From positions 1,882,480 through 1,946,479 of the forward strand of contig OZ244656.1 of NCBI GenBank assembly GCA_965218825.1: 64,000 nucleotides of DNA, in the 5' to 3' direction. The notes beneath the pieces were generated by a model, which was given only the letters and a program-made list of their open reading frames with translations, made no database searches and was not told where the DNA came from. The translations under genes and the position numbers were made by a program. Shown here piece after piece: positions 3,312 to 57,102 of this stretch. Origin of the DNA: Vicinamibacterales bacterium (GTDB taxonomy: Bacteria; Acidobacteriota; Vicinamibacteria; Vicinamibacterales; UBA8438). Every line of letters starts with the position of its first letter. Within the stretch, counting starts at the first letter, position 1.

Positions 3312-3641
3312 CTACCGGCGCGTGGTCACGTCCGCCTGACTGCGCGCGTGCCCCTCCCGGGCCGCCCGCGCCCGGCGCTCCGCCATCAGTACCAGCTTGG
3401 TCCGATAGGCCTCACCCACCTGCGTCAGGGTGGCCTGCCCTCGCGTGAGGATGCGCCGGAGGGCCTTGGACACCCCGGCTTGCGTGAGCCCGACCTCGGC
3501 GGCGATCTGGCGTTGGCTCCAGCGCTCGAGGGCCAGGTCCAAGATGCGTTCATCGCGACGCATCCGCGTGACGGGGGGCTCGTAGCCCTGCTGGCCGCCG
3601 CGCGCGGGGGTTCGCCGAGCCGGGGAGCGCCGGCGGGTCAT
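3312..3641 (-). CDS. HTH DNA-binding protein, phage terminase small-subunit-like
   Basis: 109 aa with a sigma-70 region-4-like HTH (RWSQRQIAAEVGLTQAGVSKALRR). 4-nt overlap with the upstream methyltransferase. Confidence 0.5.
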   Translation of the reverse strand: MTRRRSPARRTPARGGQQGYEPPVTRMRRDERILDLALERWSQRQIAAEVGLTQAGVSKALRRILTRGQATLTQVGEAYRTKLVLMAERRARAAREGHARSQADVTTRR

Positions 3642-4942
3642 CGCGCCCTCCCCCGCCGGCGGGCCGGGGCGCGACCCGGGGTGAGGTGGACGGCCGTCTG
3701 TCCGGTGAAGGCTTCCCAGCGTCGCCGGGCGACCTCCACGTAGATCGGGTCCACGTCCATGGCATACGTGGGGCGCCCGAGCTTTTCGCCGGCAATCAGT
3801 GTGGTGCCCGACCCGACGAAGGGGTCATAGACGGCGTCCTGCGCCGTGGTGTGATTGAGGATCGGGATCTCGAACACCCGCACGGGTTTCTGCGTCGCAT
3901 GGCCGGTGGGCGTGTTGGCCCCGGTCCGCGAGCCGCCAATGGCGTTCAGATTGGGCACCTCCCACACGGTGCTCTGCGCCCGGCCGCCGTACCACGGGGC
4001 GGCGCGCCCCTGCCGCACGGCGTACCACGCCGGTTCGTGTTGCCAGTGGTACGCGCCGCGGCCCAGCACGAACGTGATCTTCGCCCACACGATCTGACTC
4101 CGGACCTCGAACTGGGCCTGCCGGAGGCCCGCCATCACCACGTCGGCAAACAAGGCCGCGTGCCACACGTAGGCGACGTCGCCGGGGAAAAGCGCATAGG
4201 CCGCCGCCCAGTCGGCCCGGGTGTCATTGGTGACCCGCCCCACGGCGGTGCGCTGCCGGGGATAGGCCTGGTGCCGAAACGCCGGCTGATAGTTCACGCC
4301 GTAAGGGGGATCGGTCACCATCAGGCACGGGGTGGCCCCGGCGAGGAGCCGGGCGACATCCGTCGCCGACGTCGCGTCCCCGCACGCGAGGCGGTGGCGG
4401 CCGAGTTGGAACACGTCGCCGCGCCGGATCGTGGTCGTGGTGGGCGGGGCCAGCACGGTGTTCTCGTCGGGTTGCGCCTCCGGCCCCTCCGGGGCGAGCA
4501 GCCGGGCAAACTCCTCGGGGGTCCAGAAGGCCTCCAGGGCCACGCCCGCCTGTTCGAGCTGCCGCAGCACGGCCGGGTCCCAGTCCAGGTCGAGTTCGGC
4601 GACCCGGTTGTCGGCCAGTGCTAATTCCTGGGCACGGGGGTCGGTCCGCGCGTCCAGATCCACCCGCTGCACCACGACGAGTGTCTCGCCCGTGGTGGGC
4701 ACCACCGTGATCGGGAGCCCCAGGTGCTTGGCCTGTTCCACGGTCTTGTGCCCCCCCAGAATGCGCCCCCGCGTGTCGATCACGATGGAGCGGCCCGCGC
4801 CGTACGTGTGCAGACTGCGCCGCAGGGCCTCGCGGCCTCGATCCGTCCCGCGGTTGGCGTTGAGGGGATCGGGCTGCAGGTCGTCGATCGACTGAATGGG
4901 TGTCTGGCGCGCCCGCGTCGAGGGTCTTTTGGCCGGAGTCAT
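3638..4942 (-). CDS. ParB-like nuclease domain fused to a DNA N4/N6 methyltransferase (phage type)
   Basis: N-terminal ParB-like LQPDPLNANRGTD. MTase motif IV TDPPYG and motif I DPFVGSGTT in beta-class order. Start placed at MTPAKRP (4942), which overlaps the upstream stop. Confidence 0.8.
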   Translation of the reverse strand: MTPAKRPSTRARQTPIQSIDDLQPDPLNANRGTDRGREALRRSLHTYGAGRSIVIDTRGRILGGHKTVEQAKHLGLPITVVPTTGETLVVVQRVDLDARTDPRAQELALADNRVAELDLDWDPAVLRQLEQAGVALEAFWTPEEFARLLAPEGPEAQPDENTVLAPPTTTTIRRGDVFQLGRHRLACGDATSATDVARLLAGATPCLMVTDPPYGVNYQPAFRHQAYPRQRTAVGRVTNDTRADWAAAYALFPGDVAYVWHAALFADVVMAGLRQAQFEVRSQIVWAKITFVLGRGAYHWQHEPAWYAVRQGRAAPWYGGRAQSTVWEVPNLNAIGGSRTGANTPTGHATQKPVRVFEIPILNHTTAQDAVYDPFVGSGTTLIAGEKLGRPTYAMDVDPIYVEVARRRWEAFTGQTAVHLTPGRAPARRRGRAR

Positions 4943-5736
4943 CGTGTCTCTCCGGCCGGCGCGCCTGCCGGTGTCTCGTCGCTGGGCCGCCGGCCCCTCG
5001 TGAAGGCGTGATAGGCCAGGGCCAGGGCGACGACGGTATCGGGGGGATGCCCGCTCCCGAACAGATCGTCTTCCCCGCAGTACCGGTGCTCGGGAGAGCA
5101 CGCGTCGATCCGAGGACCGACGATCTCGTGCCGTTCGATGGCCCCAATGTCGTTCCGGAAGAGTTCCATCCGGACACGCCCGACCAGCGTGACGCCCTGG
5201 AGCTGGTCGTGGGCGGCGAGCGCCGGGAACGCCCCCATCGCGTTCCCGGCGCCGGTCGTGTCATGCGCGGCCGTCCCCGGATATTCATCAAGGAGAGCGC
5301 TGACGTGCGCGGCCATTTCCGGCCACGGTCGCCGTTGGATGCGGTCGACGGCGACGACCTGAAGCGGCGTGGTCTCGCAGCGCACGACGACGGCGATGGT
5401 GTCGTCGCGCTGCTGGGCCCAGTGGATGCCGGTGCAGTACCACGCCCCGGCAGGATCAGGCCAGGCCCGATCGGCGGGTGGATCCGGCGGGCCGCGCCAG
5501 CTGTGTTCAAGCTCCCCCGGCGAGATGTGCGCGCCGCGCATGGCGTCAAACATCCGCTCCACCGCGGCCGGGTCGATGGCGCGACCTCGATCAGTCCCGC
5601 GGTTGGCGTTGAGGGGATCGGGCTGCAGATCGTCCAACGCGTGAATCAGCGCGGACGGCGCCAGGCCTGACGCGTGGGACGGCGGCTCACGCCCGGCTTC
5701 GGCGTCGTGCGGTCGCGATGAGGGGGGTCGTGGCAT
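4939..5736 (-). pseudogene. chimeric ORF: ParB-like N-terminal stub fused to a terminase large-subunit C-terminal nuclease part
   Basis: DDLQPDPLNANRGTDRGR stub repeats the start of the ParB-MTase. The remainder (WYCTGIHWAQQRDDT...GHPPDTVVALALAYH) resembles the terminase RNaseH-like C-terminal domain. No ATPase half present. Confidence 0.5.
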
Positions 5737-5818: not shown

Positions 5819-6703
5819 ATGAGTAACGGCCACCGTCACTGGCAGCTGGCCGGGCTCTACAGTGAGACCGGACCGTTGGAGCGCCTCCTGCCGATCGGCG
5901 AGCTCATGGTGCCGAACGACGTGGAGCTTGAAGGGGAATGGCTGTGCTGGGGGTGGCGTGGGGACCCGCTGCAGGGGACCGCCCGCAGGCCGGGCCCCCA
6001 CATCCTCAGTGATTTCGTCAGGCTCGCCGACGGGGATGGGCCGACGATCCGCGCCTACGCACGTCGTTGGGGCATCCTGGGCATCTGTGAACATGGGCTG
6101 CCCTCCTTTCACTTGAGCAACGAGGACGGCACGCCGCGCTGTCGGCCCTTATCCCGCAGGGAGGATCCCGCGTGGCGCTTCGACGGGTGGGAGCCGCTCG
6201 ACCGGTGGCGGCATTTCGCGCGACAGGCCCGGGCCATCCTGAACCTCGCGGCGAGCTTGCATGCCGACCAGCCGGGGCAGCCCGAGGACTGGCAGGTCGT
6301 CGTCCAACACCGGAAACAGCCCGTCCCGTGGTGGCGCCCGTCGGTGGAGGCTGAATGGATCCTCCTCTCCTCTGTGGTCCAGGAATGGATCCGGATCGGG
6401 GATGTCAGGCCGGTCATGGCGCGGGGCCCGACTCAGGGACGCCAGGTGGAGTTCGGCTCCAGTGCCGGGGGCACGCGCCTCTTCGGGACCTTGGCCTGTC
6501 AGTTGCTGTTCACGATCACACGGGTGACCGGTGTGGCGGTGTGCTCCGCGTGTGCCGCGATCTACACACCCACACGGCGGCCGCGGCCCGATCAGCGGCG
6601 ATATTGCCAGTCGTGCCGCGCCGGCGGAGTGCCCCAACGCGATGCGCAGCGGGATCGGCAGCGCCGACGACGGGCAGCGCTGCCGTCGACCGACCGGACG
6701 TAG
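5819..6703 (+). CDS. hypothetical protein with C-terminal CxxC...CxxC zinc ribbon and basic tail
   Basis: 294-aa ORF divergent from the phage-like block. Contains CSAC...CQSC followed by an Arg-rich tail. Confidence 0.5.
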   Translation: MSNGHRHWQLAGLYSETGPLERLLPIGELMVPNDVELEGEWLCWGWRGDPLQGTARRPGPHILSDFVRLADGDGPTIRAYARRWGILGICEHGLPSFHLSNEDGTPRCRPLSRREDPAWRFDGWEPLDRWRHFARQARAILNLAASLHADQPGQPEDWQVVVQHRKQPVPWWRPSVEAEWILLSSVVQEWIRIGDVRPVMARGPTQGRQVEFGSSAGGTRLFGTLACQLLFTITRVTGVAVCSACAAIYTPTRRPRPDQRRYCQSCRAGGVPQRDAQRDRQRRRRAALPSTDRT

Positions 6704-8062: not shown

Positions 8063-8205
8063 GCCCTGGGGCCGGACGCCGCCCGTGCGCTGGCCGAGAC
8101 GTGTCGACAGGCCGCCGGGGATCTCCAAGGACTCCTCGCCTCTCTCCCGGTCGAGCGACTGAACTGGTCGAATGCGAACAGAACAATGAAACGGAGACGG
8201 CAACG

Positions 8206-8823
8206 ATGAGCCTGATGCGAACCTATCGTCGGGCTCTCCGCTTGTCGCAGTCGGCGTTCGCGGCGCGGTTGAACGTGCCGCTTGAGACCTACCGCCCATG
8301 GGACGCAGGCCGCCGCGAGCCGCCGCCGCAACTCCTCACCAGAGCCAGGACCCTTGCGGGCTATCCGGACGAGACGGTGCTTGTGCCGTTGCCGGTCCTG
8401 GCTTTGATGATCGGCGTGCATGTGCGCACGCTGCACGCAGCCGCGCGTTCAGGCCGACTCGTAGTGGCCTATGATACGCGGACGACCTTCCGCCGCCTGC
8501 GCCCGAGGGCGACACTGAAGCACGCGCTGGACTTTCGTCGGCACTACTACGGCACGCAGCGCCGCCCGCCCGCCACGCCAGAGCCACTGACCTGGGCCTC
8601 CGTTCCCGAGGACTATGACGTTCAACTCAAAGCGTTGCGCAGACGTCTCGACATCAGTCAGTCTGGACTCGCGCGCATGGTCGGCGCCGCCGGTAAGGCC
8701 GTCGTCTATCAATGGGAAGCGCGGAAACGCACGCCATCGCCTCTTTTCTGGCAGCGGGTCCATGAGCTTCAATCCGGGGTCCACCCCCGTCCCATGATGA
8801 CCCGCTGGAAGACAGCGTCCTGA
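8206..8823 (+). CDS. multi-HTH transcriptional regulator (two XRE-type HTH plus a MerR/excisionase-like HTH)
   Basis: YRRALRLSQSAFAARLNV, LALMIGVHVRTLHAAARSG and RRRLDISQSGLARMVG segments. ATG at 8206 chosen within ORF 8101-8823. Confidence 0.6.
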   Translation: MSLMRTYRRALRLSQSAFAARLNVPLETYRPWDAGRREPPPQLLTRARTLAGYPDETVLVPLPVLALMIGVHVRTLHAAARSGRLVVAYDTRTTFRRLRPRATLKHALDFRRHYYGTQRRPPATPEPLTWASVPEDYDVQLKALRRRLDISQSGLARMVGAAGKAVVYQWEARKRTPSPLFWQRVHELQSGVHPRPMMTRWKTAS

Positions 8824-9576: not shown

Positions 9577-9720
9577 CACCCCATGACGCAAGGGAAGATC
9601 GAACGCTACCACCGGTCGATGAAGAACGTCGTGAAGCTTGAAAAATACTTTAGCCCGTGGGAACTCCAACGCGCGCTGGCGCGTTTCGTGGAGGACTACA
9701 ATCACCGGCGTTATCGCGAA
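9577..9720 (+). pseudogene. rve-type (IS3/IS481-like) transposase, C-terminal fragment
   Basis: TQGKIERYHRSMKNVVKLEKY...FVEDYNHRRY signature only. Confidence 0.6.
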
Positions 9721-9865
9721 GCTCAAGGCGCTCGTTCGCACCGCTCGCTGTCGCCGCACCGAGACGCTCTGGCCGTTCCTCGGCGAGTGCTTGGCGCACT
9801 TCAGCCCTGACGAATGCCGCAACTATTTTCGGCACTGCGGGTACTCGGCCGCCACACGGTCATGA
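9700..9865 (+). pseudogene. IS630-family transposase, C-terminal fragment
   Basis: IAKLKALVRTA...LWPFLGECLAHFSPDECRNYFRHCGY is a typical IS630 C-terminal tail. Confidence 0.55.
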
Positions 9866-9917
9866 AAAGCGCTTTAGATCGCTGCGATGTGCTTCAAGCT
9901 CGTAGACACCGGTCCGC

Positions 9918-12161
9918 GTGCCATCCGCCGAGCTCGGGTTAGCCCTGCGGGCCCTTGAACAGCAGGCGCCGCATCGCAGCGGAGGCACAGGATACACTGG
10001 CGCAATGCACCCGGTGCTGCTGGCGGCCGATGACTGTCGCCTCTGTTCCGGCGAGCTCATTGCGCTCGGCCCACGCTTGCCCACGTCTGCCGAGGAGTTG
10101 AACGAGCTTCTCGCGACTGCGGTCGAGCAGTCCCTGGACCGTGCCTTCACCCATCTCTCGCTCGCGGCCCTTCAGCATCAGCTTCCGGTCGACGCGCGGC
10201 ACCTCCAGGGCGGCGCTCATCTGCTGCCGGACCCGGACATCGTCGCCAGGATCGCCGGCCACTGCCAAGGAGACGTGGCGGCAGCCCTGGTCGAGGCCAT
10301 GAAGGAGGGCCGCCTGTCCTGGGAGCGAGAGGGGGTCGCCTTGCTGCTCGGCGCCTGGTGGGATCAGGAGAAAGGGGAAGGCAACTCGCGCAAGCCGCTC
10401 GTCCGCCAGGCGCGTCTCCTCTGTCGCAAGTCGCTGTCGCTGAGCGGAGAGCTTCTGGTCGTGGCGACGGCGCAGCTGCTGGAGGACGACGAGCTCTCGG
10501 AGCTCGTGTCGCGGCTCGGAGCATTCGCCTTCGAGGAGAAGGCTCGTGCGATGCGTACGTCTCTCCTCGATCTTGCCACGCGGGCGGTGCTGGATGGGCT
10601 TCCAGCGAGGGCGGTGGCGCGGTCCTCGGGCCGGCGTCCGACGCGACGAGCCGTGCCTCGCATCGGCCGCAACGAGCCCTGCCCTTGTGGCAGCGGCAAG
10701 AAGTACAAGCGCTGCTGCCAGACTCGGGACGAGCAACGGCTTGGCGACTCCTCGGACATCGAGGGCGTGACCGAATCCGAGCTGCGCCGAAACCTGGAAG
10801 AGCATCTGACCTGGGATCGGCTCGAAGAACTCCGCGCACATGAGCTGGCAAGGCTCGATCCTCGTCGCATCGATCCGGGTCTTCACGCCGCCATCGTCGG
10901 AAAGCTTGTCCTCTTCAACGAGTTCCAGGCCATACATCGCTTCTTCCAAACCGAGGGACTGGCGTCCTCACTCAAGGATCACCTGCTCGACGCGGTCGAT
11001 GCGGCTCTACGCCAGCATCGAGCAGACGATGCACGAGCGTTCCTCGAGCTCGTCGAAGAGCCCGCGGACGAGATGGGGATGAGTCTTCGCATGGTCCTTC
11101 TGATGAAAGAGCTCGAGGAGGGTCCGGTGCTCGTCGAGATGGAACGACTGGCAAGCGACGTGCTCGACGAAGGCGGGGTCGACTTCGCATGCGACTTGGT
11201 AGACAGTCGATGGCCCCACCTCGGGATTCTCGTCGCCCGCGGCCTCCTCCCGGTGGTTACGGGCTTCGATCGCCAGACTCTCCTGAACTCGATCGGCGAG
11301 GCTCGGGACCGCCTTGACCTGCCGGCCATCGATCCCGTCGAGAATACCTTGGAGGCGTGGCTCGGCGACGAGCTCGAGTCGGATCGCCGGCTCGGCAGAA
11401 ACCTCGGGCGCCAACCCCTACGTGCACTCGACCAGGACGATGGCGGCGACGGCGATGATTCCTGGGCTTCCAGAGAGTCCGAGCCAGACGGGCGTGATGG
11501 CTCAGAGGCGGCGCCACAGCGAGCGGACGTGGAACACTGGCAGGCGCTTGAGGAGAAGGAGGTAGAGGTCAGGAACCTGAGAGACCAGCTCTCCGAACTG
11601 CGCGGCCTGCTGCAAGAACAGGATGGTGAGAGCAGTGGCGGCATCGTGGAGAGCAGGCCGGAGGCCGACCCGCGATTCGTCGAGCTTCGTGAGCGTGTTC
11701 ATCGGCTCAAGAGCGAGCTCACTCAGCGTCACGCCGAACGCAATCAGCTTCGTCGTCAGCTCGACCGCATGCGCAAGAGAGTCGATGCTCTCACGGTGCA
11801 GCAGGAGGAGTCAACGGCGCAGCCCGGACCGGAGGTTTCGGCGGTCCCGACAGAGCGTTCGGAGGAGCCCGCTGGGCCGCTGCCGCCGAGGCTCCCGCTC
11901 TTCTCGAAGCGCTTCCGAGAAAGACTCACAACGGTGCCGGAAGGGGTAAAGAGACGCGCCATTCTCACCGTGGGCCGAATCGCGGCCGGCGATTCGGCCG
12001 CGCTTCGCGGAGCACGCCGCCTCCACGCCGATCGAAACCTTCATCGCCAGCGGATCGGCCGGGACTACCGGCTTCTATTCCGGCTCCACGACGACGAACT
12101 CGAGGTGGTCGATCTCCTTCCGCGACAGGATCTGGAGCGAACCCTCCGAGAGTTTCGGTAG
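9918..12161 (+). CDS. large multidomain protein: helical N-terminus, SEC-C zinc motif, coiled coil, RelE/ParE-like C-terminal domain
   Basis: [16 protein letters not shown] (SEC-C). Acidic linker and heptad-rich segment. Last ~85 aa read FSKRFRERL...[29 protein letters not shown], RelE/ParE-like. GTG start uncertain; alternative ATG at 10005. Confidence 0.7.
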
Positions 12162-12209
12162 GTCACGTCCGCGTGGCGAGTCCGGCCTGCATCGCCGGAG
12201 GCCGGACCT

Positions 12210-12360
12210 ACTTTGGGGTCACGGTTGTCACACCCGCGCTTGGCGCAGGCCATCCCGTCGATCGCGTGCATCGCTCACGTGTACCTGGGGGGAACCCGCG
12301 GTTTTCGCCCACGATCTCGGAGGTGAAGGCGACCGATCAACAGCGACCGGCGCAAGCACC
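12210..12360 (-). mobile_element. IS1-like element, IRL-end remnant (~150 bp)
   Basis: Homologous to 41090-41240, including the terminal GATCAACAGCGACCGGCGCAAGCACC and the first ~17 codons (MHAIDGMACAKRGCDNR). Confidence 0.7.
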
Positions 12361-12468: not shown

Positions 12469-13854
12469 GAGATATAGGCAAATGTTGTGTATAAGGCGTC
12501 AGGCGGCTTTCTGTCTCACGCCGTCGACGAAGGGCACCCCGTCGATGACCTCGGCGATTAGCTGAGACCCGTTCAGCGCTCTCCATTGTTTCTGCGCGGC
12601 CATCGCCAGCTTGAACACCATCGTCAAGCAGGCCAGTCGGCTGCCCGCGCCCTTGGTCTTCCTCGTGCGGAGCCGGACGGTCGCGAACGTGGACTCGACC
12701 GGGTTCGTGGTACGGATGTGCATCCAGTGTTCGGCCGGAAAGGCGTAGAAGGTCAGGAGAACATCCCGGTCCTTCACCAGGCAGGTCGTCGCGGCTGGGA
12801 ACTTTGCGGCAAACGTCGCCACAAAGAGGGCGAAGGCTTGGTCGGCCGCCGCCTGCGTCTCGGCCATCCAGATGTCGTGAAGCATGGCTTTCGCCTTGGG
12901 TTGCACACCCTTGGGGAGCTTGTTGAGCACGTTCGCCGTCTTGTGGACCCAACACCGCTGCTCACGGGTTTTCGGAAACACTTTCCGCACGGCGCCCCAG
13001 AAGCCGAGGCCCCCGTCGCCGATGGCGAGCTCGGGATCGATCGTGAGTCCGCGGGCACGGACATCGAGCAGCAACTCGCGCCATGACTGTTCGCTCTCCC
13101 GGTAGCCATCGGTGATCGCGATGAGCTCCTTCGTCCCGTCTCGGGTGGCGCCCATCAGCACCAGAATGCATTGCCGTTTGTTGTCCGTGTCCTCGAGCCG
13201 GACGTTGAAGTACACGCCGTCGGCCCAGACGTAGGCGTAGCGCGTGTACGCCAACGACCGCTTCGACCAGTCCTGGTACTCGTGCGCCCACACTGCCTTC
13301 AGCCGCGTGATGGTCGTCGCCGATAACCCGCGCGCCTCGGGCCCCAACAACGCCTGGAGCGCCTCGCCGAAGCCGCCGGTGCTGATGCCCTTGAGATAAA
13401 GCCAGGGATACAGGGCCTCCAAGCTGGGGGTCTTCCGCAGATAGGGCGGCAGGACCGCCGACCGGAACGTCTCGCGCTCGTCGGCGGGCCGGCGGTCCCG
13501 GACCCGCGGTTGCTGCACCTGGACGTCCCCGACTGGGGTCTGTATCGTCCGCTCGGGCAAGCGGCCGTTGCGGACCACACCCCGTTGCCCGGCGGCGTCC
13601 ACGGTGGTCGCCCGAGCATCCAGATACTCGTCAACCTCCGCCTCGATCGCCGTGGCCAGCATTCGCTGCGCCCCGGTGCGCAGCACATCGGTCAACACGT
13701 CGCGGGCCGATGCCTGTGGGAACTCGACCAACTTTTCGCTAGGCTTCGTCATGGTGGCGTACCTCCTTGCCCCTTGGGGTGAACTGGGTGCCTCAGCAAC
13801 ACCCAGGGTACGCCGCCTGTTCACAGCCTCATACCCAACTTTCGGTTATACCTC
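12469..13854 (-). mobile_element. IS256-family IS, type 1, copy 2 (complete, 1386 bp, no TSD)
   Basis: Imperfect terminal IRs GAGATATAGGCAAATGTTGTGTATAAGGC / GAGGTATAACCGAAAGTTGGGTATGAGGC (22/29). Flanking 9-mers differ. Confidence 0.9.
12499..13824 (-). CDS. IS256-family transposase (441 aa)
   Basis: Full ORF with Mutator/IS256-type layout. Near-identical to 25051-26376. Confidence 0.9.
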   Translation of the reverse strand: MNRRRTLGVAEAPSSPQGARRYATMTKPSEKLVEFPQASARDVLTDVLRTGAQRMLATAIEAEVDEYLDARATTVDAAGQRGVVRNGRLPERTIQTPVGDVQVQQPRVRDRRPADERETFRSAVLPPYLRKTPSLEALYPWLYLKGISTGGFGEALQALLGPEARGLSATTITRLKAVWAHEYQDWSKRSLAYTRYAYVWADGVYFNVRLEDTDNKRQCILVLMGATRDGTKELIAITDGYRESEQSWRELLLDVRARGLTIDPELAIGDGGLGFWGAVRKVFPKTREQRCWVHKTANVLNKLPKGVQPKAKAMLHDIWMAETQAAADQAFALFVATFAAKFPAATTCLVKDRDVLLTFYAFPAEHWMHIRTTNPVESTFATVRLRTRKTKGAGSRLACLTMVFKLAMAAQKQWRALNGSQLIAEVIDGVPFVDGVRQKAA

Positions 13855-14765: not shown

Positions 14766-16197
14766 GAAGGTGCGCGAAACTTAGTTGGGAATTGAAGCGG
14801 CTCCAAACCCTGTGGTTTGATGACGTTGCCTAAGACGAACATCACGCCACGAGAGAAAGGAGCCGAGATGAGCAGTGTCCTACGACCCGTCAGGAAGCGC
14901 AAGAAGGTTCGCACGTTGGGCCCGGTCGACGTCATCGACCGGAAGGAGTACGCCGAACTGGACGTCGACACCAAGGTGGAGTTGATCCGGTCCTTGGTGC
15001 CGCTGGGGTTGCTGCATGTCGAGGAGTTGCTCGACGCGGAGGTGACGGCGCTGGCGGGCGGGCGCTATGCCCGCAAGGACGCATCGGTCGGCGGGCGTCG
15101 TCATGGCAGCAACCCCGGGACGGTCGGGTTGGCCGGCCAGCGCGTGCCAATTCGCGTGCCACGGATTCGCCATGTCGCGGGGAGCGAGATGCCGCTGCGG
15201 TCCTACGAGGCGTTGCATGGGGAGCGCGCGGTGAACGACCTGCTGCTGAAGCGCGTGCTGTACGGAATCTCGTGCCGCAACTACGAAGCCGCCGCGGCGG
15301 CGATTCCCGGAGCCATCGGGCTGTCGGGGTCGACCGTGTCCCGGGGCTTTATTCAGGCTAGCGCGGCGAAACTGCGGGAGCTCCAGGAGCGGGACCTCTC
15401 CGGCGAGGACGTGGTGGCCGTGGTCCTGGACGGCAAGACCGTTGCCGAGGCAACGATGGTCATCGCGCTGGGCATCACGATGGCGGGGGAAAAACGCTTT
15501 CTGGGCTTCGTCGAGACGGATACCGAGAACGAGAAAGTGTTGACCCCGTTCTTGCGGTCGTTGGTCGAGCGGGGTCTTGACGTCTCCCAGGGCGTGCTGG
15601 TGATCCTCGACGGCGGCAAGGGGCTGCGATCAGCCGTCCGCAAAGCCTTCCGGGACCGGGCGCTGGTCCACCGGTGCCAGTGGCATAAGCGCGAGAACGT
15701 GGTGAGTTACCTGGCCAAGACCGAGCAGGCGTCGTGGCGCCAGCGCCTCCAACGCGCCTACAACCGTCCGGAATACGACGAAGCCCGCGCGGCCCTTGAG
15801 ACGCTCCATCGCGAGCTGGAGGACCGGAACCAATCGGCGGCCCGCAGCTTGGCGGAAGGCTTCGACGAGACCTTGACGCTGCATCGACTCGGGCTCTACG
15901 GCGTTCTGGGCCGCTCGCTGAAGACGACGAACTGTCTGGAGTCCGTCAATGCGCTCGTCGAGGAACGCTGCGCGAAGGTCGATCACTGGCAAAACTCGCG
16001 TCAACGTCACCGCTGGCTGGCGACCGCGCTCTTGGACATCGAACCGCGCCTGCGCAAGGTGATGGGGTACCGGCACCTGCCCACGCTCCGTGCCGCGTTG
16101 AAGCGAGAACTGAAGATCGACACGACGACGTCGAAGAAGAAAGCCGCGTAGTCAATCAGGAGCCGTAGAGAGTTTCAACTAAGAATGGGCTTGACTC
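14766..16197 (+). mobile_element. IS256-family IS, type 2 (1432 bp) with 8-bp TSD
   Basis: Flanked by TCCGGGAC at 14758-14765 and 16198-16205. Termini share CTTAGTTG and CGGCTCC blocks in inverted orientation. Confidence 0.85.
14820..16151 (+). CDS. IS256-family transposase, type 2 (443 aa)
   Basis: Full ORF, colinear with IS256-type transposases but divergent from type 1. ATG at 14820 (a TTG lies at 14817). Confidence 0.85.
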   Translation: MTLPKTNITPREKGAEMSSVLRPVRKRKKVRTLGPVDVIDRKEYAELDVDTKVELIRSLVPLGLLHVEELLDAEVTALAGGRYARKDASVGGRRHGSNPGTVGLAGQRVPIRVPRIRHVAGSEMPLRSYEALHGERAVNDLLLKRVLYGISCRNYEAAAAAIPGAIGLSGSTVSRGFIQASAAKLRELQERDLSGEDVVAVVLDGKTVAEATMVIALGITMAGEKRFLGFVETDTENEKVLTPFLRSLVERGLDVSQGVLVILDGGKGLRSAVRKAFRDRALVHRCQWHKRENVVSYLAKTEQASWRQRLQRAYNRPEYDEARAALETLHRELEDRNQSAARSLAEGFDETLTLHRLGLYGVLGRSLKTTNCLESVNALVEERCAKVDHWQNSRQRHRWLATALLDIEPRLRKVMGYRHLPTLRAALKRELKIDTTTSKKKAA

Positions 16198-25020: not shown

Positions 25021-26406
25021 GAGATATAGGCAAATGTTGTGTATAAGGCGTCAGGCGGCTTTCTGTCTCACGCCGTCAACGAAGGGCACCCCGTCGATGA
25101 CCTCGGCGATTAGCTGAGACCCGTTCAGCGCTCTCCATTGTTTCTGCGCGGCCATCGCCAGCTTGAACACCATCGTCAAGCAGGCCAGTCGGCTGCCCGC
25201 GCCCTTGGTCTTCCTCGTGCGGAGCCGGACGGTCGCGAACGTGGACTCGACCGGGTTCGTGGTACGGATGTGCATCCAGTGTTCGGCCGGAAAGGCGTAG
25301 AAGGTCAGGAGAACATCCCGGTCCTTCACCAGGCAGGTCGTCGCGGCTGGGAACTTTGCGGCAAACGTCGCCACAAAGAGGGCGAAGGCTTGGTCGGCCG
25401 CCGCCTGCGTCTCGGCCATCCAGCTGTCGTGAAGCATGGCTGTCGCCTTGGGTTGCACACCCTTGGGGAGCTTGTTGAGCACGTTCGCCGTCTTGTGGAC
25501 CCAACACCGCTGCTCACGGGTGTTCGGAAACACTTTCCGCACGGCGCCCCAGAAGCCGAGGCCCCCGTCGCCGATGGCGAGCTCGGGATCGATCGTGAGT
25601 CCGCGGGCACGGACATCGAGCAGCAACTCGCGCCATGACTGTTCGCTCTCCCGGTAGCCATCGGTGATCGCGATGAGCTCCTTCGTCCCGTCTCGGGTGG
25701 CGCCCATCAGCACCAGAATGCATTGCCGTTTGTTGTCCGTGTCCTCGAGCCGGACGTTGAAGTACACGCCGTCGGCCCAGACGTAGGCGTAGCGCGTGTA
25801 CGCCAACGACCGCTTCGACCAGTCCTGGTACTCGTGCGCCCACACTGCCTTCAGCCGCGTGATGGTCGTCGCCGATAACCCGCGCGCCTCGGGCCCCAAC
25901 AACGCCTGGAGCGCCTCGCCGAAGCCGCCGGTGCTGATGCCCTTGAGATAAAGCCAGGGATACAGGGCCTCCAAGCTGGGGGTCTTCCGCAGATAGGGCG
26001 GCAGGACCGCCGACCGGAACGTCTCGCGCTCGTCGGCGGGCCGGCGGTCCCGGACCCGCGGTTGCTGCACCTGGACGTCCCCGACTGGGGTCTGTATCGT
26101 CCGGTCGGGCAAGCGGCCGTTGCGGACCACACCCCGTTGCCCGGCGGCGTCCACGGTGGTCGCCCGAGCATCCAGATACTCGTCAACCTCCGCCTCGATC
26201 GCCGTGGCCAGCATTCGCTGCGCCCCGGTGCGCAGCACATCGGTCAACACGTCGCGGGCCGATGCCTGTGGGAACTCGACCAACTTTTCGCTAGGCTTCG
26301 TCATGGTGGCGTACCTCCTTGCCCCTTGGGGTGAACTGGGTGCCTCAGCAACACCCAGGGTACGCCGCCTGTTCACAGCCTCATACCCAACTTTCGGTTA
26401 TACCTC
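25021..26406 (-). mobile_element. IS256-family IS, type 1, copy 3 (complete, 9-bp TSD)
   Basis: CTCGATGTC at 25012-25020 and 26407-26415. Same IRs as copy 2. Confidence 0.95.
25051..26376 (-). CDS. IS256-family transposase (441 aa)
   Basis: Differs from 12499-13824 by a few residues only. Confidence 0.9.
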   Translation of the reverse strand: MNRRRTLGVAEAPSSPQGARRYATMTKPSEKLVEFPQASARDVLTDVLRTGAQRMLATAIEAEVDEYLDARATTVDAAGQRGVVRNGRLPDRTIQTPVGDVQVQQPRVRDRRPADERETFRSAVLPPYLRKTPSLEALYPWLYLKGISTGGFGEALQALLGPEARGLSATTITRLKAVWAHEYQDWSKRSLAYTRYAYVWADGVYFNVRLEDTDNKRQCILVLMGATRDGTKELIAITDGYRESEQSWRELLLDVRARGLTIDPELAIGDGGLGFWGAVRKVFPNTREQRCWVHKTANVLNKLPKGVQPKATAMLHDSWMAETQAAADQAFALFVATFAAKFPAATTCLVKDRDVLLTFYAFPAEHWMHIRTTNPVESTFATVRLRTRKTKGAGSRLACLTMVFKLAMAAQKQWRALNGSQLIAEVIDGVPFVDGVRQKAA

Positions 26407-40054: not shown

Positions 40055-41240
40055 GGTGCTTGCGCCGCTCGCTGTTGATCAGGCCGCCGCTCGCTGTTCG
40101 TACGACCATGAGAGCGGCGGCAACCCGCCCGCGGCAGTTTCGACGACCGCCACAAACACGCGCAGACGGACAAGCCGCCCTGTGAAGATGTCGCTCAGGG
40201 CCAATCGCCTGCTCACCAGACGGGCCTGCATGGCTGGGGTCCTCGTTTCGCGCCCGAACCGCAAGGCCCGGTGCGGTCGGACGAAGTTGTAGTGGCACCG
40301 CACGAGCTCGACGTGGCTGCGGAGCTGGTCTGCGTCACGGGCGTGGCAGGGCGAGCGCCGGCGCAAGTACGCCGACGCTTGCCGAATCGTGAGGTTGAGG
40401 CGCTCGACGAACGAGGTGTTCAGGGTCTCGGAATCCTCCGACGCCCACAACGCGGCTTTCAGTCGATTCGCCGTGCCGATCTTCACGCGCCGCTCGACCC
40501 GGACGACACGATTGTTCCGCCGTGTCTTGAGCACTTGACCATAGACGCACGTTGACCCCAAGAGAGCCCCAACCGCGCCGACGTAGTACTCGAAGCCATC
40601 GGTGGCGATCAGGGGACATCCCACGACTCGGCCCCGGCAGATGACGTCTTCGATGACGGCCCTGGCGTTTCGATCGGAGCGGCGCCCCAGGACGCTACTG
40701 GCCCACACGCGGGAGGATACCTCGATGGTCGCAAACAGCCAGACCGTTGTGCTCTTGTTGCCGATGAACGTGCAGAGCTCATCAGCTTGCAGCTCAATGA
40801 GGTCGAAGTCGCGCAACATCCGGTCGTTGAAGTGCTTCGCGGCCGTTGAGGCTCGCTCGAGCCAACGCGCGACGGTATTGCGGGAGTGGCCTGTGACGCG
40901 GGCGGTCGCCGAAATGCTCACGCCTTCGACGCGCAGGCTTGCGACTTGGTCGAACTCCCGTCGCGTGCAGCGAAGCCCACTGTAGGCCGTCCCCGTGTTC
41001 GTGCTGAGCGTTCCCCTGCAGACTGTGCATCGGTAGCGCCGTCGTCGGCCCGACTTCGTCGCAAACGAGCCGTAGCCCACGATGTTGAGGCCCGGTTTTC
41101 CACGATTGTCACACCCGGGCGTGGCGCACGCCATCCCGTCGATCGCGTTCATTGCTCAAGGGTACCGGGGGCGAGCCCGTCGTTTCCTCCACGATCTCGG
41201 AGGTAAAGCTGACCGATCAACAGCGACCGGCGCAAGCACC
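40055..41240 (-). mobile_element. IS1-like IS (1186 bp)
   Basis: 26-bp IRs GGTGCTTGCGCCGCTCGCTGTTGATC / GGTGCTTGCGCCGGTCGCTGTTGATC (1 mismatch). Confidence 0.8.
40079..41152 (-). CDS. IS1-family-like transposase (Zn finger + HTH + DDE, 357 aa)
   Basis: N-terminal CxxC...CxxC. NTSFVERLNLTIRQ...YNFVRPHRAL tail as in IS1-type enzymes. Confidence 0.6.
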   Translation of the reverse strand: MNAIDGMACATPGCDNRGKPGLNIVGYGSFATKSGRRRRYRCTVCRGTLSTNTGTAYSGLRCTRREFDQVASLRVEGVSISATARVTGHSRNTVARWLERASTAAKHFNDRMLRDFDLIELQADELCTFIGNKSTTVWLFATIEVSSRVWASSVLGRRSDRNARAVIEDVICRGRVVGCPLIATDGFEYYVGAVGALLGSTCVYGQVLKTRRNNRVVRVERRVKIGTANRLKAALWASEDSETLNTSFVERLNLTIRQASAYLRRRSPCHARDADQLRSHVELVRCHYNFVRPHRALRFGRETRTPAMQARLVSRRLALSDIFTGRLVRLRVFVAVVETAAGGLPPLSWSYEQRAAA

Positions 41241-41249
41241 AGACTGCCT

Positions 41250-43442
41250 ATGGACACGAATCGAATCGAACTGACAGTGGTGTCGAGCTCGGATACGTGT
41301 GGCAGCCAGACATCCAGCCTCAACCGCTTCGGTGCCGACCCTCGTCAGGGGCGGGTGTGGTGTGACTGGCCCCACCGCACCGTCGTCCTGACCTGTGATG
41401 GAACCATTGTTTGCGGCTGCGGCGACGCCTTCAACGAGAACCCGATGGGCGATGCCCGGAAGGAGAGCGTGCTGGACATCTGGCGCGGAGAGGGATTCCA
41501 GCGCATGCGGAGCGGCATGCGAGACGGTCATCTCGTCCCCTTCTGCTACCGCTGTGGGCTCATGGAGGTCCATCCGTCCGACTTCGACGTCCCCGACCTG
41601 CCGATCGTGCCGGATGCGTACCCGCGCGAGCTCTACGTCGAGCCGACGATCGTCTGCAATCTCCGATGCCCGCAGCCGGCCTGCGTACCCGACGAGGTGT
41701 ACGACACCCGCTCGATCCGGATGCTGCCGATCGACACGTACAAGAAGGTGCTCGATGAGGTCGGACCCCATCTCGAGCGCATGGTCTTCTACAACTACGG
41801 TGAGAGCTTCATCCACCCTGACGCGTGCCAGATGATCCGGTACGCGAAGGACGTGAACCCCAACATCTGGATCTGGACCTCCACCAACGGTCACTACTTC
41901 GACAAGCCCGAAAAGGTCCGAGCGCTCGTCGATTCCGGCATCGACGAGATTCAGTTCAGCATCGATGGGGCGACCCAGGAGGTCTACGAGGAGTACCGCA
42001 AGCACGGTCGTCTGACCAAAGTGTTGGACGGGATCCGAGCCGTCATTGAGGAGCGCGAACGCCGTGGCATGCCCGGCCCGTGGATCCTCTGGAACTACAT
42101 CCTGTTCCGATGGAACGACTCAGACGAGCAGATGGAGCGCGCTCGCGCGCTCGCAATCGAGTTGGGTGTCGACCGCCTCACCTGGACGACGACCGACCAG
42201 CCGCTCGGCATGCCGTCGACCCGCTTCGTGCCGGGCTCCCCCGACTACGAGCGGATCAGGCCGGGGCTGATCGGTGCTGGGCGGGACATCCCCAATGCCA
42301 TCCAATGGCGTGCCGGAATCGAGGCGATTGACCTCCCCACGAAGGTCCGCGTCGGTGACGCCTTCGTGGCTCGCCTGCGCGTCCGCAACGAAGGTGAGGT
42401 CCGGTGGCCTTCGGCGTCGGAGCAGACCACCAGGCCAGTCCGCCTCTATGGCCGGCTGAAGCCGGCGAGCGGTGACTCCTTCGGCCGGCCCTTTCTCGTC
42501 GGAACCCTGCCGCGCGCCGTACCACCGGGAGAAACGGTCGATGTCGAGATGCACGGGTTCGCCGGGAGGGAACCTGGACACGGCCGGCTCAAGCTGGATC
42601 TTCTTTTCGGCGAGCGCTGGTGGTTCGAGGAGCTTGGGGGCGAGCCGCTGGTACAAGACCTCGAGATCGGTGACGCCAATGACCGTCCACCGCTGTTGGA
42701 GCTGGTTTCAAGTCCATCGGCCGTCCGCGCCGGCGAAGAGTTCGAGGTTGTCGTGCGGGTGCATGGCCGCGTCGACCGCCCGCTCGATGGGTCTCCGGCG
42801 GCGATGCACCGTGCCGGTGTCGGTATCCGCTGGGCCGCCAATGAGGCCGCCACCCACTCCGCCGAAGGACGACGTTGCTACTTCGAACCGCCGCTTGGCC
42901 CCGGGGAGGTTCGCGAGCTACGGTTGTCCGTCCTGGCCCCGTCCCTCACGTCCGGTCGCTGGATGGCGAAACTAGATCTCGTCATGGAGGGGCTGACCTG
43001 GTTCGAGGACCTTGGATTCGAGCCGCTGTGCCTGGAGCTCGAGGTCGACGGAGACACCGAGCCCTGTCAAGTCGCTGTGGAGGTGCTCCAGGCACCCGCG
43101 ACGGTGGCCCGCTCGGCCGCGTTCGATCTCAAACTCCGCGTCCGAAACGATTCGGACGAATCGCTTGACGGGTCCACCTCGAGCCAAGCTCTGGTCGGTG
43201 TCGGCATCCGTTGGACCGACGGGGCGGTCGGACGGGTCGCACGGGATTCCGATCGCCTTTATTTCGATCCGCCGCTGCAGCCCGGAGAAACCCGCGAACT
43301 TCTGCTGCGTGTGCCCGAAGGAGCACTCTCCGCAGGCACGTTCGTCGCACGGGTCGACCTGGTGAAGGAGCATCACTTCTGGTTCGAGGAAAAGGGCGCA
43401 CGGCCTTCGAAGTTCGAGCTCCTCATCTCCGAACCATCCTGA
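41250..43442 (+). CDS. radical SAM protein with N-terminal SPASM/twitch-like Cys-rich region and three C-terminal Ig-like (NBR1-like) repeats
   Basis: CDGTIVCGCGD...PFCYRCG, then VEPTIVCNLRCPQPAC, NYGESF, WTSTNG, FSIDG. Three ~115-aa repeats end (W)WFEE / WFED / WFEE. Confidence 0.7.
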   Translation: MDTNRIELTVVSSSDTCGSQTSSLNRFGADPRQGRVWCDWPHRTVVLTCDGTIVCGCGDAFNENPMGDARKESVLDIWRGEGFQRMRSGMRDGHLVPFCYRCGLMEVHPSDFDVPDLPIVPDAYPRELYVEPTIVCNLRCPQPACVPDEVYDTRSIRMLPIDTYKKVLDEVGPHLERMVFYNYGESFIHPDACQMIRYAKDVNPNIWIWTSTNGHYFDKPEKVRALVDSGIDEIQFSIDGATQEVYEEYRKHGRLTKVLDGIRAVIEERERRGMPGPWILWNYILFRWNDSDEQMERARALAIELGVDRLTWTTTDQPLGMPSTRFVPGSPDYERIRPGLIGAGRDIPNAIQWRAGIEAIDLPTKVRVGDAFVARLRVRNEGEVRWPSASEQTTRPVRLYGRLKPASGDSFGRPFLVGTLPRAVPPGETVDVEMHGFAGREPGHGRLKLDLLFGERWWFEELGGEPLVQDLEIGDANDRPPLLELVSSPSAVRAGEEFEVVVRVHGRVDRPLDGSPAAMHRAGVGIRWAANEAATHSAEGRRCYFEPPLGPGEVRELRLSVLAPSLTSGRWMAKLDLVMEGLTWFEDLGFEPLCLELEVDGDTEPCQVAVEVLQAPATVARSAAFDLKLRVRNDSDESLDGSTSSQALVGVGIRWTDGAVGRVARDSDRLYFDPPLQPGETRELLLRVPEGALSAGTFVARVDLVKEHHFWFEEKGARPSKFELLISEPS

Positions 43443-43551: not shown

Positions 43552-44401
43552 TTGACGTTTGCCACCGTTCCTGCCGGAGAGCGGTTGGCCGATGACCTGA
43601 TTGCGTTGGCCAGTAGCATCAACCCTAACATTGAGACGTCTAAAACGGGCACTGCCAATGTCGGTCTCTCGATCGGCGTGAATGCACCGGCCGTCGACGC
43701 GCTAACCGTATACGCCGGCTGCGATGGCTGGCTAGGCAGGGTAGGCACCAAGGGTCCATACAGAACCAGCGACCTCGGAAACCCCTTTGGAGCCGGCTTC
43801 GCCGCCTGCTTGGCGGCAGCCAACCTGTTTCGCTTCTTATTCCTTCCCGACGGCCCAACTTTATTGGATGCCGATCTTCGTTTTCCTTCCGACGCTGCCT
43901 CTTTCCCGCGTCTTGTGGCCTCCACAATGACGGACCCCTTGGTGTTGGTAGGTGTTGGAGCGGTGGGCAACAGTGCCTGCTGGGCACTAGCGCGTACGCC
44001 GCTAATCGGCCAGATTTACCTGGTCGATCCACAAATCGTCGAGCTTAGCAATCTGCAGCGCTACGTTCTCTGTGCGCGGAGCGACGAAAACGGCGTCAAG
44101 GTTGATATCGTTGGGAAGGAATTTGAGGGCGCACTACGTGCGCGACTTCATCAGGGAACATGGGCGTCCTTCGTGGGGACCAATGGCTACCATTGGGAAC
44201 GCGTTCTGGTTGCCCTAGATTCCGCCCATGACCGACGAGCCGTGCAAGGGAGCCTGCCACGTTGGGTCGCTAACGCGTGGACCCAGGCAGGTGATCTCGG
44301 CGTGTCCACTCATTCTTTCTTGGGTCCCGATGCCTGTCTTGCGTGCCTTTATTTGCCAACCCAGAAATCCAAGAACGAAGACCAGATCGTCGCTGAAAGC
44401 C
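43552..44401 (+). pseudogene. E1-like ThiF/UBA-family adenylating enzyme, C-terminus cut by IS
   Basis: LVGVGAVGNSACWALA Rossmann motif, YLVDPQIVELSNLQRY, CLAC. ~130-aa N-terminal extra domain. Reading frame enters the IS IR at 44402. TTG start uncertain. Confidence 0.7.
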
Positions 44402-45490
44402 TGCCTTGGTGCACAACTCCATTGAGGGCTGAGAGTCTCCCGTGACTCCGCCTGCCGGTCATCCGATCATCTCGCCATCGGGTATCCCGAGCGCCGTCAT
44501 GGTGTTCAGGATCTTGCACCCCAACCTCACCTCGACTCTCTGGGACGCCAGTCCCCTCGCTCGCATCGCTGAGCCCAGGATGGCCTTGTAGCGGTGGAAC
44601 GTCGTCTCCACCTTGCTTCGCCTGCTGTAGCCCGATGCGACGTACCACTTCCGTTTCCCAACATGTGATCGTGCTCGGATGTTACGATTCCGCTGTCACG
44701 TGCCCGCAGAGTCGAGCGCGAGCTGAGCGCCCTTTCGTGGCGGTATCAGCACCTTCGGCGATCGATGAGCACGGTGATTCTCCAGCGTCTTATAGACGTC
44801 GCCGGTGGCGTACGCGGCGTCGGCCTTGGCCGAGGCGATGGGACGCTCGATCTGGCCGACGAGTGACGCCACCCGGGAAGCGTCTCGAGCCCGCTTGCTC
44901 GTGAGCTCGCAGGCGACCACGTCACTGGTTTGCTCATCCACAGCGAGGTGCAGCTTGCGGTAGTCCCTGGCTTTCGGCGGAGTGCGCAACTGGCCGACGT
45001 GCACTGAAAGACCGCTGCTGTCGATGCGGAGGTGGACGGGCTTCACGGTTCGCCTCTCGGAGGAAGCAACCTTCCCCAGCCTCGCCTTGCGCCTCGAGAT
45101 CGTGCTGTGGTCGGGCACGTCGTTGTCCAGATTCAGGAGCGTCAGCAGCGAGCGCAGGAAGCCCTCAGTCTGCCTGGACGCCAGGCCAAACACCAAGCCC
45201 AAGGTGACCGTCGTCTCGATGGCGTGGTTCGAGTACTTGCGTTGTCGGCCTGGCTTCCTGCGCGTCGGCCTCGGCGAGTTCCAGTTGGCGAGCTTGCCAT
45301 CGGTGAGTCCGAGCCAGACGGTCAGACTCCCGCGAGCGCGGAGACCCGTCTCGTACTCCCGCCAATTCCGGACACGGTAGGCCTTCTGGACGTACTTCCG
45401 CTGGGTGCGCTTGAAACTCGTCATGCGGGACCTCGGATCTCGGGGTGGAGGGCAATTATTGACCGAGATCGCGAGTTGTGCACCAAGGCA
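44402..45490 (-). mobile_element. IS5-family (IS903-like) IS, copy A (1089 bp)
   Basis: 18-bp perfect IRs TGCCTTGGTGCACAACTC. The 9-mers at its own two ends do not match. Confidence 0.9.
44459..45424 (-). pseudogene. IS903-like transposase with premature TGA
   Basis: TGA at 44696-44698 where copies B and C have CGA. ORF stops after 242 of 321 codons. Confidence 0.85.
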
Positions 45491-57064: not shown

Positions 57065-57102
57065 CACTGACACTGACACTGACACTGACACTGACGCTGA
57101 TG
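57061..57102. repeat. hexanucleotide tandem repeat (CTGACA)x5 + CTGACG + CTGATG
   Basis: Fills the whole spacer. The first unit holds the DUF1552 stop TGA and the last unit holds the ankyrin ATG. Confidence 0.95.

Follow-up and report, generated by a model that had tools for sequence, protein, structure and literature searches.

RelE-family toxins are the textbook example of small, two-gene toxin-antitoxin (TA) modules. The locus described here raises the question of how a domain of this kind can be kept when it stands at the end of a large protein with no antitoxin gene beside it. It lies in the genome of a Vicinamibacterales bacterium (Acidobacteriota; GenBank assembly GCA_965218825.1), in a stretch of 64,000 nucleotides (nt) of contig OZ244656.1 (positions 1,882,480 to 1,946,479 of the forward strand), which we call the window and whose first letter is position 1 in the coordinates below. 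In a first-pass annotation of these letters, an open reading frame (ORF) at 9918..12161 on the plus strand had been read as a SEC-C zinc motif and a long coiled coil fused to a RelE/ParE-like toxin fold, isolated between insertion sequence (IS) debris, and possibly an autoinhibited or sensor-effector protein of a conflict system. Our preferred answer, to which we assign a probability of about 0.45, is that the gene encodes a cytoplasmic single-chain protein of ~718 amino acids (aa), a RelE-type endoribonuclease that would act on the ribosome and would be inhibited in cis by the rest of its own chain.

A predicted RelE-type domain at the C-terminus

The end of the protein (residues 658-747, 11889..12158 on the plus strand; residue numbers throughout are those of the 747-aa maximal ORF) has a net charge of +9, and by modelled fold and profile it belongs to the RelE/ParE superfamily, as had been suspected. 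PF24732 (ParE_like) is the sole Pfam model above threshold on this domain. Its match spans residues 677-737 and scores 26.9 bits on the full-length protein, or 31.7 bits when the last 100 residues are searched alone (cutoff 24.4), and it matches 36 of 42 family members. PF05016 (ParE_toxin) reaches 13.8 bits on the isolated domain, below its cutoff of 23. Modelled alone, residues 659-746 adopt a beta-alpha-alpha-(alpha)-beta-beta-beta-alpha order, with a mean predicted local distance difference test score (pLDDT) of 91.9 and a predicted template modelling (TM) score (pTM) of 0.83. When this model, or the corresponding part of the full-length AlphaFold2 model, is compared with the Protein Data Bank (PDB) by Foldseek, the top matches are all toxins of the RelE/ParE superfamily, at a probability of 1.0.

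Within the superfamily, the fit is better to RelE than to ParE. The closest structures are Methanocaldococcus jannaschii RelE (TM score on the target 0.80, root mean square deviation (rmsd) 2.3 Å), RelE1 and RelE3 of Mycobacterium tuberculosis (Mtb; TM 0.76-0.78, rmsd 2.1 Å) and Vibrio cholerae YafQ (TM 0.76, rmsd 2.4 Å). RelE structures overall give TM scores of 0.75-0.80 and rmsd values of 2-2.4 Å, as against 0.51-0.57 and 4-9 Å for ParE structures, although ParE2 also appears among the matches at probability 1.0. Thermus RelE, Pyrococcus horikoshii RelE and the CARF-RelE fusion Cami1 are matched as well. An hhalign comparison of the domain profile with P. horikoshii aRelE gives an E-value of 2.2e-4 (aRelE row DLDLYRARLG-DYRVIYSV..LKPR), and in this register R710, R712, R718 and R736 correspond to aRelE R58, R60, R65 and R85. 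Against E. coli RelE the YRL strand alone was aligned, and against a true ParE from locus L006 no alignment was obtained. The E. coli RelE and aRelE queries are identical to PDB chains 4v7k_Ay and 1wmi_A.

The aligned positions are those on which RelE activity depends. The equivalent sites are K52, K54, R61 and R81 in E. coli RelE and S58, R60, R65 and R85 in Mtb RelE1 (PMC12620021). Cleavage by E. coli RelE requires R61, R81 and Y87, with contributions from K52 and K54, and its KL motif contacts A1493 of the 16S rRNA (PMC2807027). Toxicity of RelE1, whose target is 16S rRNA rather than mRNA, requires R60, R65, R85 and Y89 (PMC12620021). Counted over 201 full-length members of the family, R710 is conserved in 199, R712 (as R or K) in 200, R718 in all 201 and R736 in 200. 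The other key residues of the domain are R658 (200 of 201), a near-invariant R741, and the pair R701-L702 (R or K in 186 and L or I in 201), which falls, by eye and outside the hhalign-aligned block, where the alpha2-beta2 loop of RelE carries its KL motif. Because the structural fit is better, the arginines at the RelE catalytic positions are kept, aRelE aligns and ParE does not, and PF05016 stays below its threshold, we regard the module, as modelled, as RelE-type rather than ParE-type and its active site as plausible. Designed armadillo repeats matched by the C-terminal hidden Markov model (HMM) among PDB sequences were dismissed as spurious, the match running via an 'AAGD' helix.

An internal SecA-type metal-binding domain

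The SEC-C motif noted earlier at mid-protein is confirmed by PF02810, which covers residues 251-268 (motif 252-267) at 38.6 bits against a cutoff of 20.4. It forms the core of a SecA-type metal-binding domain (MBD; residues 243-268, 10644..10721, plus strand) with a net charge of +7 to +8. The ligand set is CXCX8CC (C255, C257, C266 and C267), and these cysteines, together with S259, K261, K262, Y263 and K264, are invariant or nearly so across the alignment. The similarity to SecA itself is close: 21 of 23 residues are identical to the Haemophilus influenzae SecA peptide that was crystallised with SecB (PDB 1ozb). The motif is invariant in 100 homologs and present in 42 of 42 members scanned, and it is directly followed by an invariant SSDVAGVT..E block.

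In SecA the MBD binds SecB and ribosomes, an interaction that relieves autoinhibition; the domain also occurs in YecA, YchJ and many methionine aminopeptidases, and a general role in ribosome interaction has been proposed for it (bioRxiv 10.1101/613315). By analogy, the MBD of the present protein may bind zinc or iron and dock on SecB or the ribosome; an internal SEC-C motif would in this way have a specific function that can be put to the test. As the C-terminal cysteines of such a motif in YchJ are reported to sense reactive oxygen species (PMC13377102), redox or metal sensing is a possible role here too.

The body of the protein and its charge pattern

The remainder of the chain is almost entirely helical. 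AlphaFold2, run on the full length with a 100-sequence alignment (mean pLDDT 85.6, pTM 0.67), lays out a helical N domain (30-221), a zinc knuckle (~250-268), a helical M domain (268-493) and two disordered stretches (495-533 and 634-649). Combining this layout with the alignment and the charge distribution, we divide the protein as follows. The N domain (residues 30-240, 10005..10637, plus strand, as for all parts of the protein) is all-alpha, solenoid-like and mildly acidic, with helices only and pLDDT values of 95-98. After the MBD comes the M domain (269-494, 10722..11399), which is all-alpha and strongly acidic (net charge -24 here, family median -18) and carries invariant blocks that include ARDRLxLxxxDP. 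The acidic Asp/Gly/Ser linker seen in the first pass is linker L1 (495-533, 11400..11516), disordered at pLDDT below 50 and enlarged in this clade to 39 aa from a family median of 9. The segment then described as heptad-rich corresponds to two long helices (11517..11816), H1 (534-572) and H2 (585-633; to 632 in one reading of the model), which probably form an antiparallel hairpin. A second acidic linker, L2 (634-657, 11817..11888), net negative in 201 of 201 members, leads into the RelE-type domain.

N and M resemble nothing known. No relative of either was found in Pfam, NCBIfam, PADLOC, a search of the full-length profile against PDB sequences, or a Foldseek search of viral structures; Foldseek against the PDB gave weak TPR/ARM/HEAT-like matches only. 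Homology of the regulatory region to a known antitoxin or to a CARF sensor was likewise not found in Pfam, NCBIfam, PADLOC or the PDB, and PADLOC and NCBIfam matches were limited to the SEC-C motif and coiled-coil noise, the whole protein being unmatched.

H2 holds a near-invariant QRHxERNQLRR motif (residues 603-613, nt 11724-11756). A HEPN-like reading of its RHxERN part was dropped, the Rx4-6H pattern being absent. In one homolog of 814 aa (P0062) a long (AAQPAARD)n tandem repeat is inserted between H1 and H2, and the H1-H2 linker therefore tolerates large changes of length.

The charges of the different parts are partitioned in the same manner in 201 of 201 members, with medians of +9 for the RelE module, +7 for the SEC-C block, -18 for the M domain and -6 for L2. 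An acidic body and linker thus face a basic RelE module, which by analogy is the same charge relationship as that of an antitoxin to its toxin. Mean-field direct coupling analysis (DCA) of residues 534-747, with an effective number of sequences (Meff) of ~142, recovered sensible contacts of the RelE fold and H1-H2 pairs at i+j ~1150, the latter supporting the antiparallel hairpin. It also gave a tentative cluster of couplings between H2 (590-612) and helix alpha-2 of the RelE module (684-692), which at this Meff is only suggestive. Taken together, the solitary toxin-fold gene, the opposed charges and the tentative covariation make autoinhibition in cis plausible.

Extent of the reading frame

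The maximal ORF is intact and gives 747 aa from a GTG, as had been annotated; that length, on the other hand, is probably too great. Translation probably starts at the ATG at 10005, giving a coding sequence of 718 aa (10005..12161, plus strand). Homologs of 716-718 aa align from residue 30 of the maximal ORF, residues 1-29 have a pLDDT of ~50 in the AlphaFold2 model, the nucleotide match to orthologs of 92% identity (L001-L003) sets in at 9979, and upstream of this ATG there is a GGAGG (9981-9985); for these reasons we favour the later start. Neither a sigma-70-like promoter nor an intrinsic terminator was found around the gene.

A family with a fixed architecture

The first-pass annotation had presented the protein as an isolated oddity, and this did not hold. 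A homolog search over 5.8 billion proteins returned 229 homologs, of which the best 120 are nearly all 690-730 aa long, with ~96% query coverage, 31-98% identity and the same domains. Alignments of 42 and of 100 members show conservation along the full length, including the motif LGILVARG as well as ARDRLxLxxxDP, QRHxERNQLRR and the C-terminal domain. The few named homologs come from metagenome-assembled genomes (MAGs) of Acidobacteriota and Verrucomicrobia. A scan of genome contigs with the full-length alignment added a relative from a Haliangiales MAG (L010), which we take to belong to the Myxococcota; the other matches in that scan were unrelated SEC-C proteins, drawn in by generic peptide patterns of the SEC-C motif. 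The family thus sits in soil phyla that are hard to culture (Acidobacteriota, Verrucomicrobiota and the Haliangiales MAG) and has so far received automatic annotation only.

When 1.84 billion cluster representatives were searched with a profile built from the C-terminal domain only, 802 clusters matched, 517 of them at E<=1e-10. The best 150 of the 802 are proteins of ~700 aa with the domain at the extreme C-terminus, or shorter ones that end in it and are probably fragments. The tethering of the toxin fold to a large helical and SEC-C region, as described at first, is therefore a fixed feature of the family, involving ~630 residues. Since at least 500 clusters retain this architecture throughout their length and the apparent short variants are frameshifted or truncated copies, this RelE-like subtype occurs essentially only in this fusion. 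Among 120 metagenomic loci there was no free-standing RelE module, and the short ORFs in metagenomes that bear its motif, considered as a possible free-standing version with an antitoxin, turned out to be disrupted or truncated copies or chance matches. Candidates for variants with no RelE domain or with other effectors, namely homologs of 446-540 aa on megabase contigs, were likewise rejected as frameshifted copies with out-of-frame tails rich in R, S and P.

The ratio of nonsynonymous to synonymous substitution rates (dN/dS, Nei-Gojobori) is ~0.30 for the whole gene, 0.15-0.18 for the RelE module, 0.14-0.25 for the SEC-C block and 0.32-0.43 for the N and M domains. These values indicate purifying selection and a functional gene, of which the RelE module and the zinc motif are the most protected parts.

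At the nucleotide level, the window matches its closest relatives in the gene alone: 98.6% identity over 9914-12161 for L090, 91.8% over 9979-12168 for L001-L003, and 72% for L004. L090, a copy in another assembly, is homologous from 4 nt before the GTG precisely as far as the stop codon, and the DNA beyond these limits is unrelated at either end, from which it follows that the gene was kept while both flanks were replaced. One 716-aa protein occurs in two unrelated contexts, and IS elements lie near several loci. About 15 of 118 metagenomic copies are frameshifted or interrupted (L105, L107, L123, L136, L141, L145, L148, L152, L158, L180, L187, L189, L191, L192 and L195), which could be sequencing error or the real decay of an accessory gene; truncated remnants of the gene were seen at L094, L149 and L206. 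Overall, the gene behaves as an accessory gene.

Genomic context

In the window the gene is bordered by IS sequences, in agreement with the first description. Upstream is a truncated integrase (rve_3) fragment (9583..9810, plus strand), which is IS debris outside the gene. Downstream, also outside the gene, is an IS256-family element (12469..13854, minus strand; transposase 12499-13824) that is 99.6% identical to 25021-26406, and beyond it are nested, inverted IS fragments. The absence of an antitoxin-like gene next to the toxin fold, noted from the start, extends to the neighbourhoods of the whole family. Its attribution to the IS flanks fails: orthologs in IS-free contexts also have no conserved neighbour, so the absence of an antitoxin is intrinsic to the family.

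This conclusion comes from a comparison of loci. A degenerate DNA pattern, written by hand to encode RQR[VI]Gxx[YH]RLLFR, matched at least 120 metagenomic loci; together with the loci found before, they supplied 65 complete genes whose neighbours were analysed and which form 33 groups at 80% identity. When the flanking ORFs were clustered all against all, no family occurred in more than 4 of the 33 groups, and nine orthologous loci that were inspected had no neighbour in common. The most recurrent neighbour, in 4 of 33 lineages, is a Type ISP/IIG restriction-modification (R-M) gene immediately upstream (L137 and L160, 26 nt upstream on the same strand; also L172 and L196). An uncharacterised protein of ~240 aa (a 96-aa ORF in L162; starts MNEPEGESMSNEELLQHTRELRDKL) lies 16-163 nt from the gene, on either side, in 3 of 33 lineages (L108, L135 and L162).

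When 101 flanking ORFs were searched with Pfam and PADLOC they proved heterogeneous, with sulfatases, MFS transporters, response regulators, core metabolism, DnaB and TrmD, and one locus adjoins an ffh-rpsP-rimM-trmD-rplS cluster. Defence-type ORFs are a minority (R-M, AbiEii and PD-T4-6, plus TIR and TA pairs in individually inspected loci), and the defence-island signal is weak. By tblastn the family was found on none of 72,556 plasmids and in none of 50,697 phage genomes, and the degenerate pattern had no match in IMG/VR. A place in a conflict system, as proposed in the first pass, is therefore not established: the neighbours are mostly ordinary chromosomal genes, with an occasional R-M, AbiE, TA or TIR gene, and none of the searched phages or plasmids carries the family.

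A model of tethered inhibition, and its alternatives

A cytoplasmic RelE-type endoribonuclease held in check by its own chain could work as follows. Through its MBD the protein would attach to the ribosome or to SecB, in the way SecA uses the identical motif. At rest, the acidic body, the L2 linker or helix H2 would cover the RelE module of the same chain, and such an intramolecular 'antitoxin' would explain the absence of an antitoxin gene. The helical domains, which evolve faster, or the metal site would sense a signal that frees the module, which would enter the 30S A site or the region of the 16S 3' end and cleave ribosome-bound RNA by means of R710, R712, R718 and R736. Translation would then stop, perhaps as part of a stress response or of abortive infection. 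There are precedents for parts of such a scheme: in CapRel, a fused toxin-antitoxin, autoinhibition in cis is relieved by a trigger protein (PMC9712102), and Cami1, a sensor-RelE fusion, has been solved on the 70S ribosome (PDB 8phj). If the module is active, this would be a new form of toxin control, by tethered inhibition in cis, and a RelE nuclease would be brought to the ribosome by a new route, in principle like that of Cami1 and CapRel though built from other parts. A more specific version, which we consider rather improbable, would make the protein a hitherto unrecognised chromosomal factor for ribosome surveillance, into which a RelE module was domesticated. Held on ribosomes by the SecA-type MBD, where it might compete with SecA and SecB near the exit tunnel, it would respond to a specific signal, for example stalled translation, blocked secretion, or redox or metal stress acting on the Cys4 site, by swinging the RelE module into the A site to cut mRNA or 16S rRNA. 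If true, it would link the Sec-targeting interface directly to mRNA cleavage and offer a protein-intrinsic alternative to TA regulation.

Several observations weigh against cis-inhibited ribosomal cleavage. The stacking tyrosine (Y87 of RelE, Y89 of RelE1) has no counterpart, as no conserved aromatic residue occurs at 737-746 in the 201 members and R741 occupies the place where it would sit. Since this tyrosine is needed in both RelE and RelE1, catalysis is not assured; examination of the catalytic residues, which the first-pass annotation had called for, thus gave a divided answer, with the four basic positions kept in 199-201 of 201 members and the tyrosine lost. The C-terminal HMM profile found no RelE or ParE among PDB sequences; among such searches it is only structure comparison and the Pfam model that detect the relationship. 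The MBD is internal (251-268 of 747), which is unusual, as that of SecA, YecA and YchJ is terminal; its partner binding may for this reason differ from that of SecA. The DCA covariation is weak (Meff ~142), and the genomic context, mostly ordinary metabolism, does not indicate a role in defence. Finally, our literature searches returned no publication on the family, its architecture or PF24732, and no experiment reported for any member. An exact look-up of the 718-aa protein returned no record. Some Joint Genome Institute (JGI) records bear the automatic name 'mRNA-degrading endonuclease RelE', and others 'SEC-C metal-binding domain-containing protein', so database labels for the pieces (PF24732, SEC-C, RelE) already exist; these are automatic, and the Pfam name points to ParE where the evidence here points to RelE.

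Among the other explanations, the one we take most seriously, while still thinking it unlikely, is that the RelE fold has been domesticated and is no longer toxic. The protein would then be an adaptor that binds the ribosome, RNA or another protein, a housekeeping or regulatory factor acting, for example, in translation or in secretion through its SecA-like MBD, and no antitoxin would be needed. The missing equivalent of Tyr87 fits such a factor, as do a solitary, stably kept gene conserved over its full length across phyla, the mostly core or metabolic neighbours (including the ffh-rpsP-rimM-trmD-rplS cluster) and the absence from the plasmids and phages searched. Set against this, basic residues fill all four catalytic positions in 199 or more of the 201 members, and the RelE module is the most constrained part of the protein. 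Both would suit an active cleft, but a module that only binds RNA could show them as well. RelE relatives such as YoeB, YafQ and HigB, moreover, vary widely in their acid/base residues. A dN/dS of 0.3, a variable location and ~13% disrupted copies also look accessory rather than housekeeping. Another alternative keeps the mechanism proposed above but assigns it specifically to abortive infection: in the manner of CapRel, autoinhibition would be relieved when the N and M helical domains recognise and bind a protein of the phage. The single chain of toxin and regulatory region, helical domains that evolve faster than the effector, the occasional defence neighbours (Type ISP/IIG R-M in 3-4 of 33 lineages, and single AbiEii, TIR and TA pairs) and the unrelated, IS-bordered flanks in which close relatives hold the gene would all agree with an anti-phage sensor of this kind. 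We nevertheless consider it distinctly unlikely, as PADLOC has no match for the whole protein, most neighbourhoods are not defence islands, the invariant architecture shows no swapping of effector or sensor, and a dN/dS of 0.3-0.4 in N and M does not resemble an arms race.

Two further alternatives concern the nature of the C-terminal module. That it is a ParE-type gyrase poison fused to a regulatory body is suggested by the name ParE_like of the only Pfam model above threshold, by the weak score of PF05016 and by the ParE2 structures among the Foldseek matches; given the poorer fit to ParE, the retained RelE arginines, the empty hhalign comparison with a bona fide ParE (as against E=2e-4 with aRelE) and the lack of an adjacent ParD gene, we find this very improbable. 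RelE-like folds can also end secreted toxins, and one of these, Txp40 (PDB 7xbj), is among the Foldseek matches. A secreted or polymorphic toxin with a C-terminal RelE-like warhead is nonetheless scarcely credible here, for neither Pfam nor NCBIfam detected a domain for trafficking or secretion, the C-terminal domain is invariant, unlike that of a polymorphic toxin, no immunity gene is conserved downstream, and the SecA MBD is a cytoplasmic motif.

Other features of the window

The IS256-family element next to the gene is present in several copies and nested, inverted fragments in the window (12469-13854, 25021-26406, 1-772, 13495-13854/14406-14765 and 13338-13502/16198-16362). As these are 99.6-100% identical, transposition and rearrangement must have been recent. 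A different Transposase_mut ORF lies at 14817-16151. A repeat of 141 bp (12220-12360) begins 59 nt past the stop codon of the gene, and its second copy, at 86.5% identity, is found 29 kb away at 41101-41240. The genome of the window is that of an uncultured acidobacterium, and all named relatives of the asparagine synthase encoded in it are labelled 'Acidobacteria bacterium'.

Upstream of the IS debris are an N6/N4 DNA methylase gene (3638-5101, minus strand), a 294-aa ORF with a Cys-rich C-terminus (5819-6703, plus strand) and a gene for a protein with two helix-turn-helix domains, HTH_3/HTH_31 (8101-8823, plus strand); the three may be remnants of a mobile element or of an R-M system. Farther downstream, an ORF with Prok-E2_C and ThiF domains (43552-44445, plus strand; E2/E1-like) directly follows a radical-SAM/SPASM ORF (41082-43442, plus strand), and the pair may be a prokaryotic ubiquitin-like conjugation or conflict module. 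A PSD/PSCyt multi-domain gene (53268-57064; DUF1592, DUF1588, DUF1587, DUF1585 and DUF1595) is paired with a DUF1552 gene (57100-58728), after which comes the gene for a 542-aa ankyrin-repeat protein.

Comparison with known systems

The C-terminal module shares with the RelE interferases (E. coli RelE, aRelE, RelE1/RelE3 and YafQ) the fold, the order of secondary structure elements (TM 0.75-0.80), basic residues at the K52, K54, R61 and R81 sites, and a strongly basic charge; by eye, an RL may stand in for the KL motif. In contrast to these toxins, it is not a free-standing protein of ~90 aa: it is fused to ~630 residues, has no antitoxin gene and lacks the stacking Tyr (Y87/Y89), and its sequence similarity is too low for HMMER to detect against PDB sequences. 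The small toxin gene in an operon with its antitoxin that characterises type II TA systems such as RelBE and ParDE is not found here.

Cami1, the CARF-RelE protein of type III CRISPR systems (PDB 8phb/8phj), also joins a RelE-fold module to a regulatory domain (TMq 0.68-0.72). In the present family, however, the place of CARF is taken by an all-alpha body, a SecA MBD and a helical hairpin, the RelE module is on a long tether, and there is no CRISPR or cyclic-oligonucleotide context. CapRel (PMC9712102) is similar in being a single polypeptide with no separate antitoxin gene, in which the non-toxin part is proposed to be autoinhibitory, but its toxin is a toxSAS rather than a RelE fold and its antitoxin domain has unfused homologs, of which none are known here; evidence for phage defence and a hypervariable sensor region are also lacking in our case. 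With the MBD of SecA, YecA and YchJ the protein shares a nearly identical motif, opening with GRN[ED], closing with [CH] and keeping the conserved Ser, Tyr and Lys, whereas the motif is internal here and outside it the protein bears no relation to SecA, UPF0149 or UPF0225. Because the gene lacks the operon feature of type II TA systems and the protein lacks the regulatory domains of Cami1 and CapRel, we file it under none of these and describe it as a tethered, partner-less RelE-fold effector.

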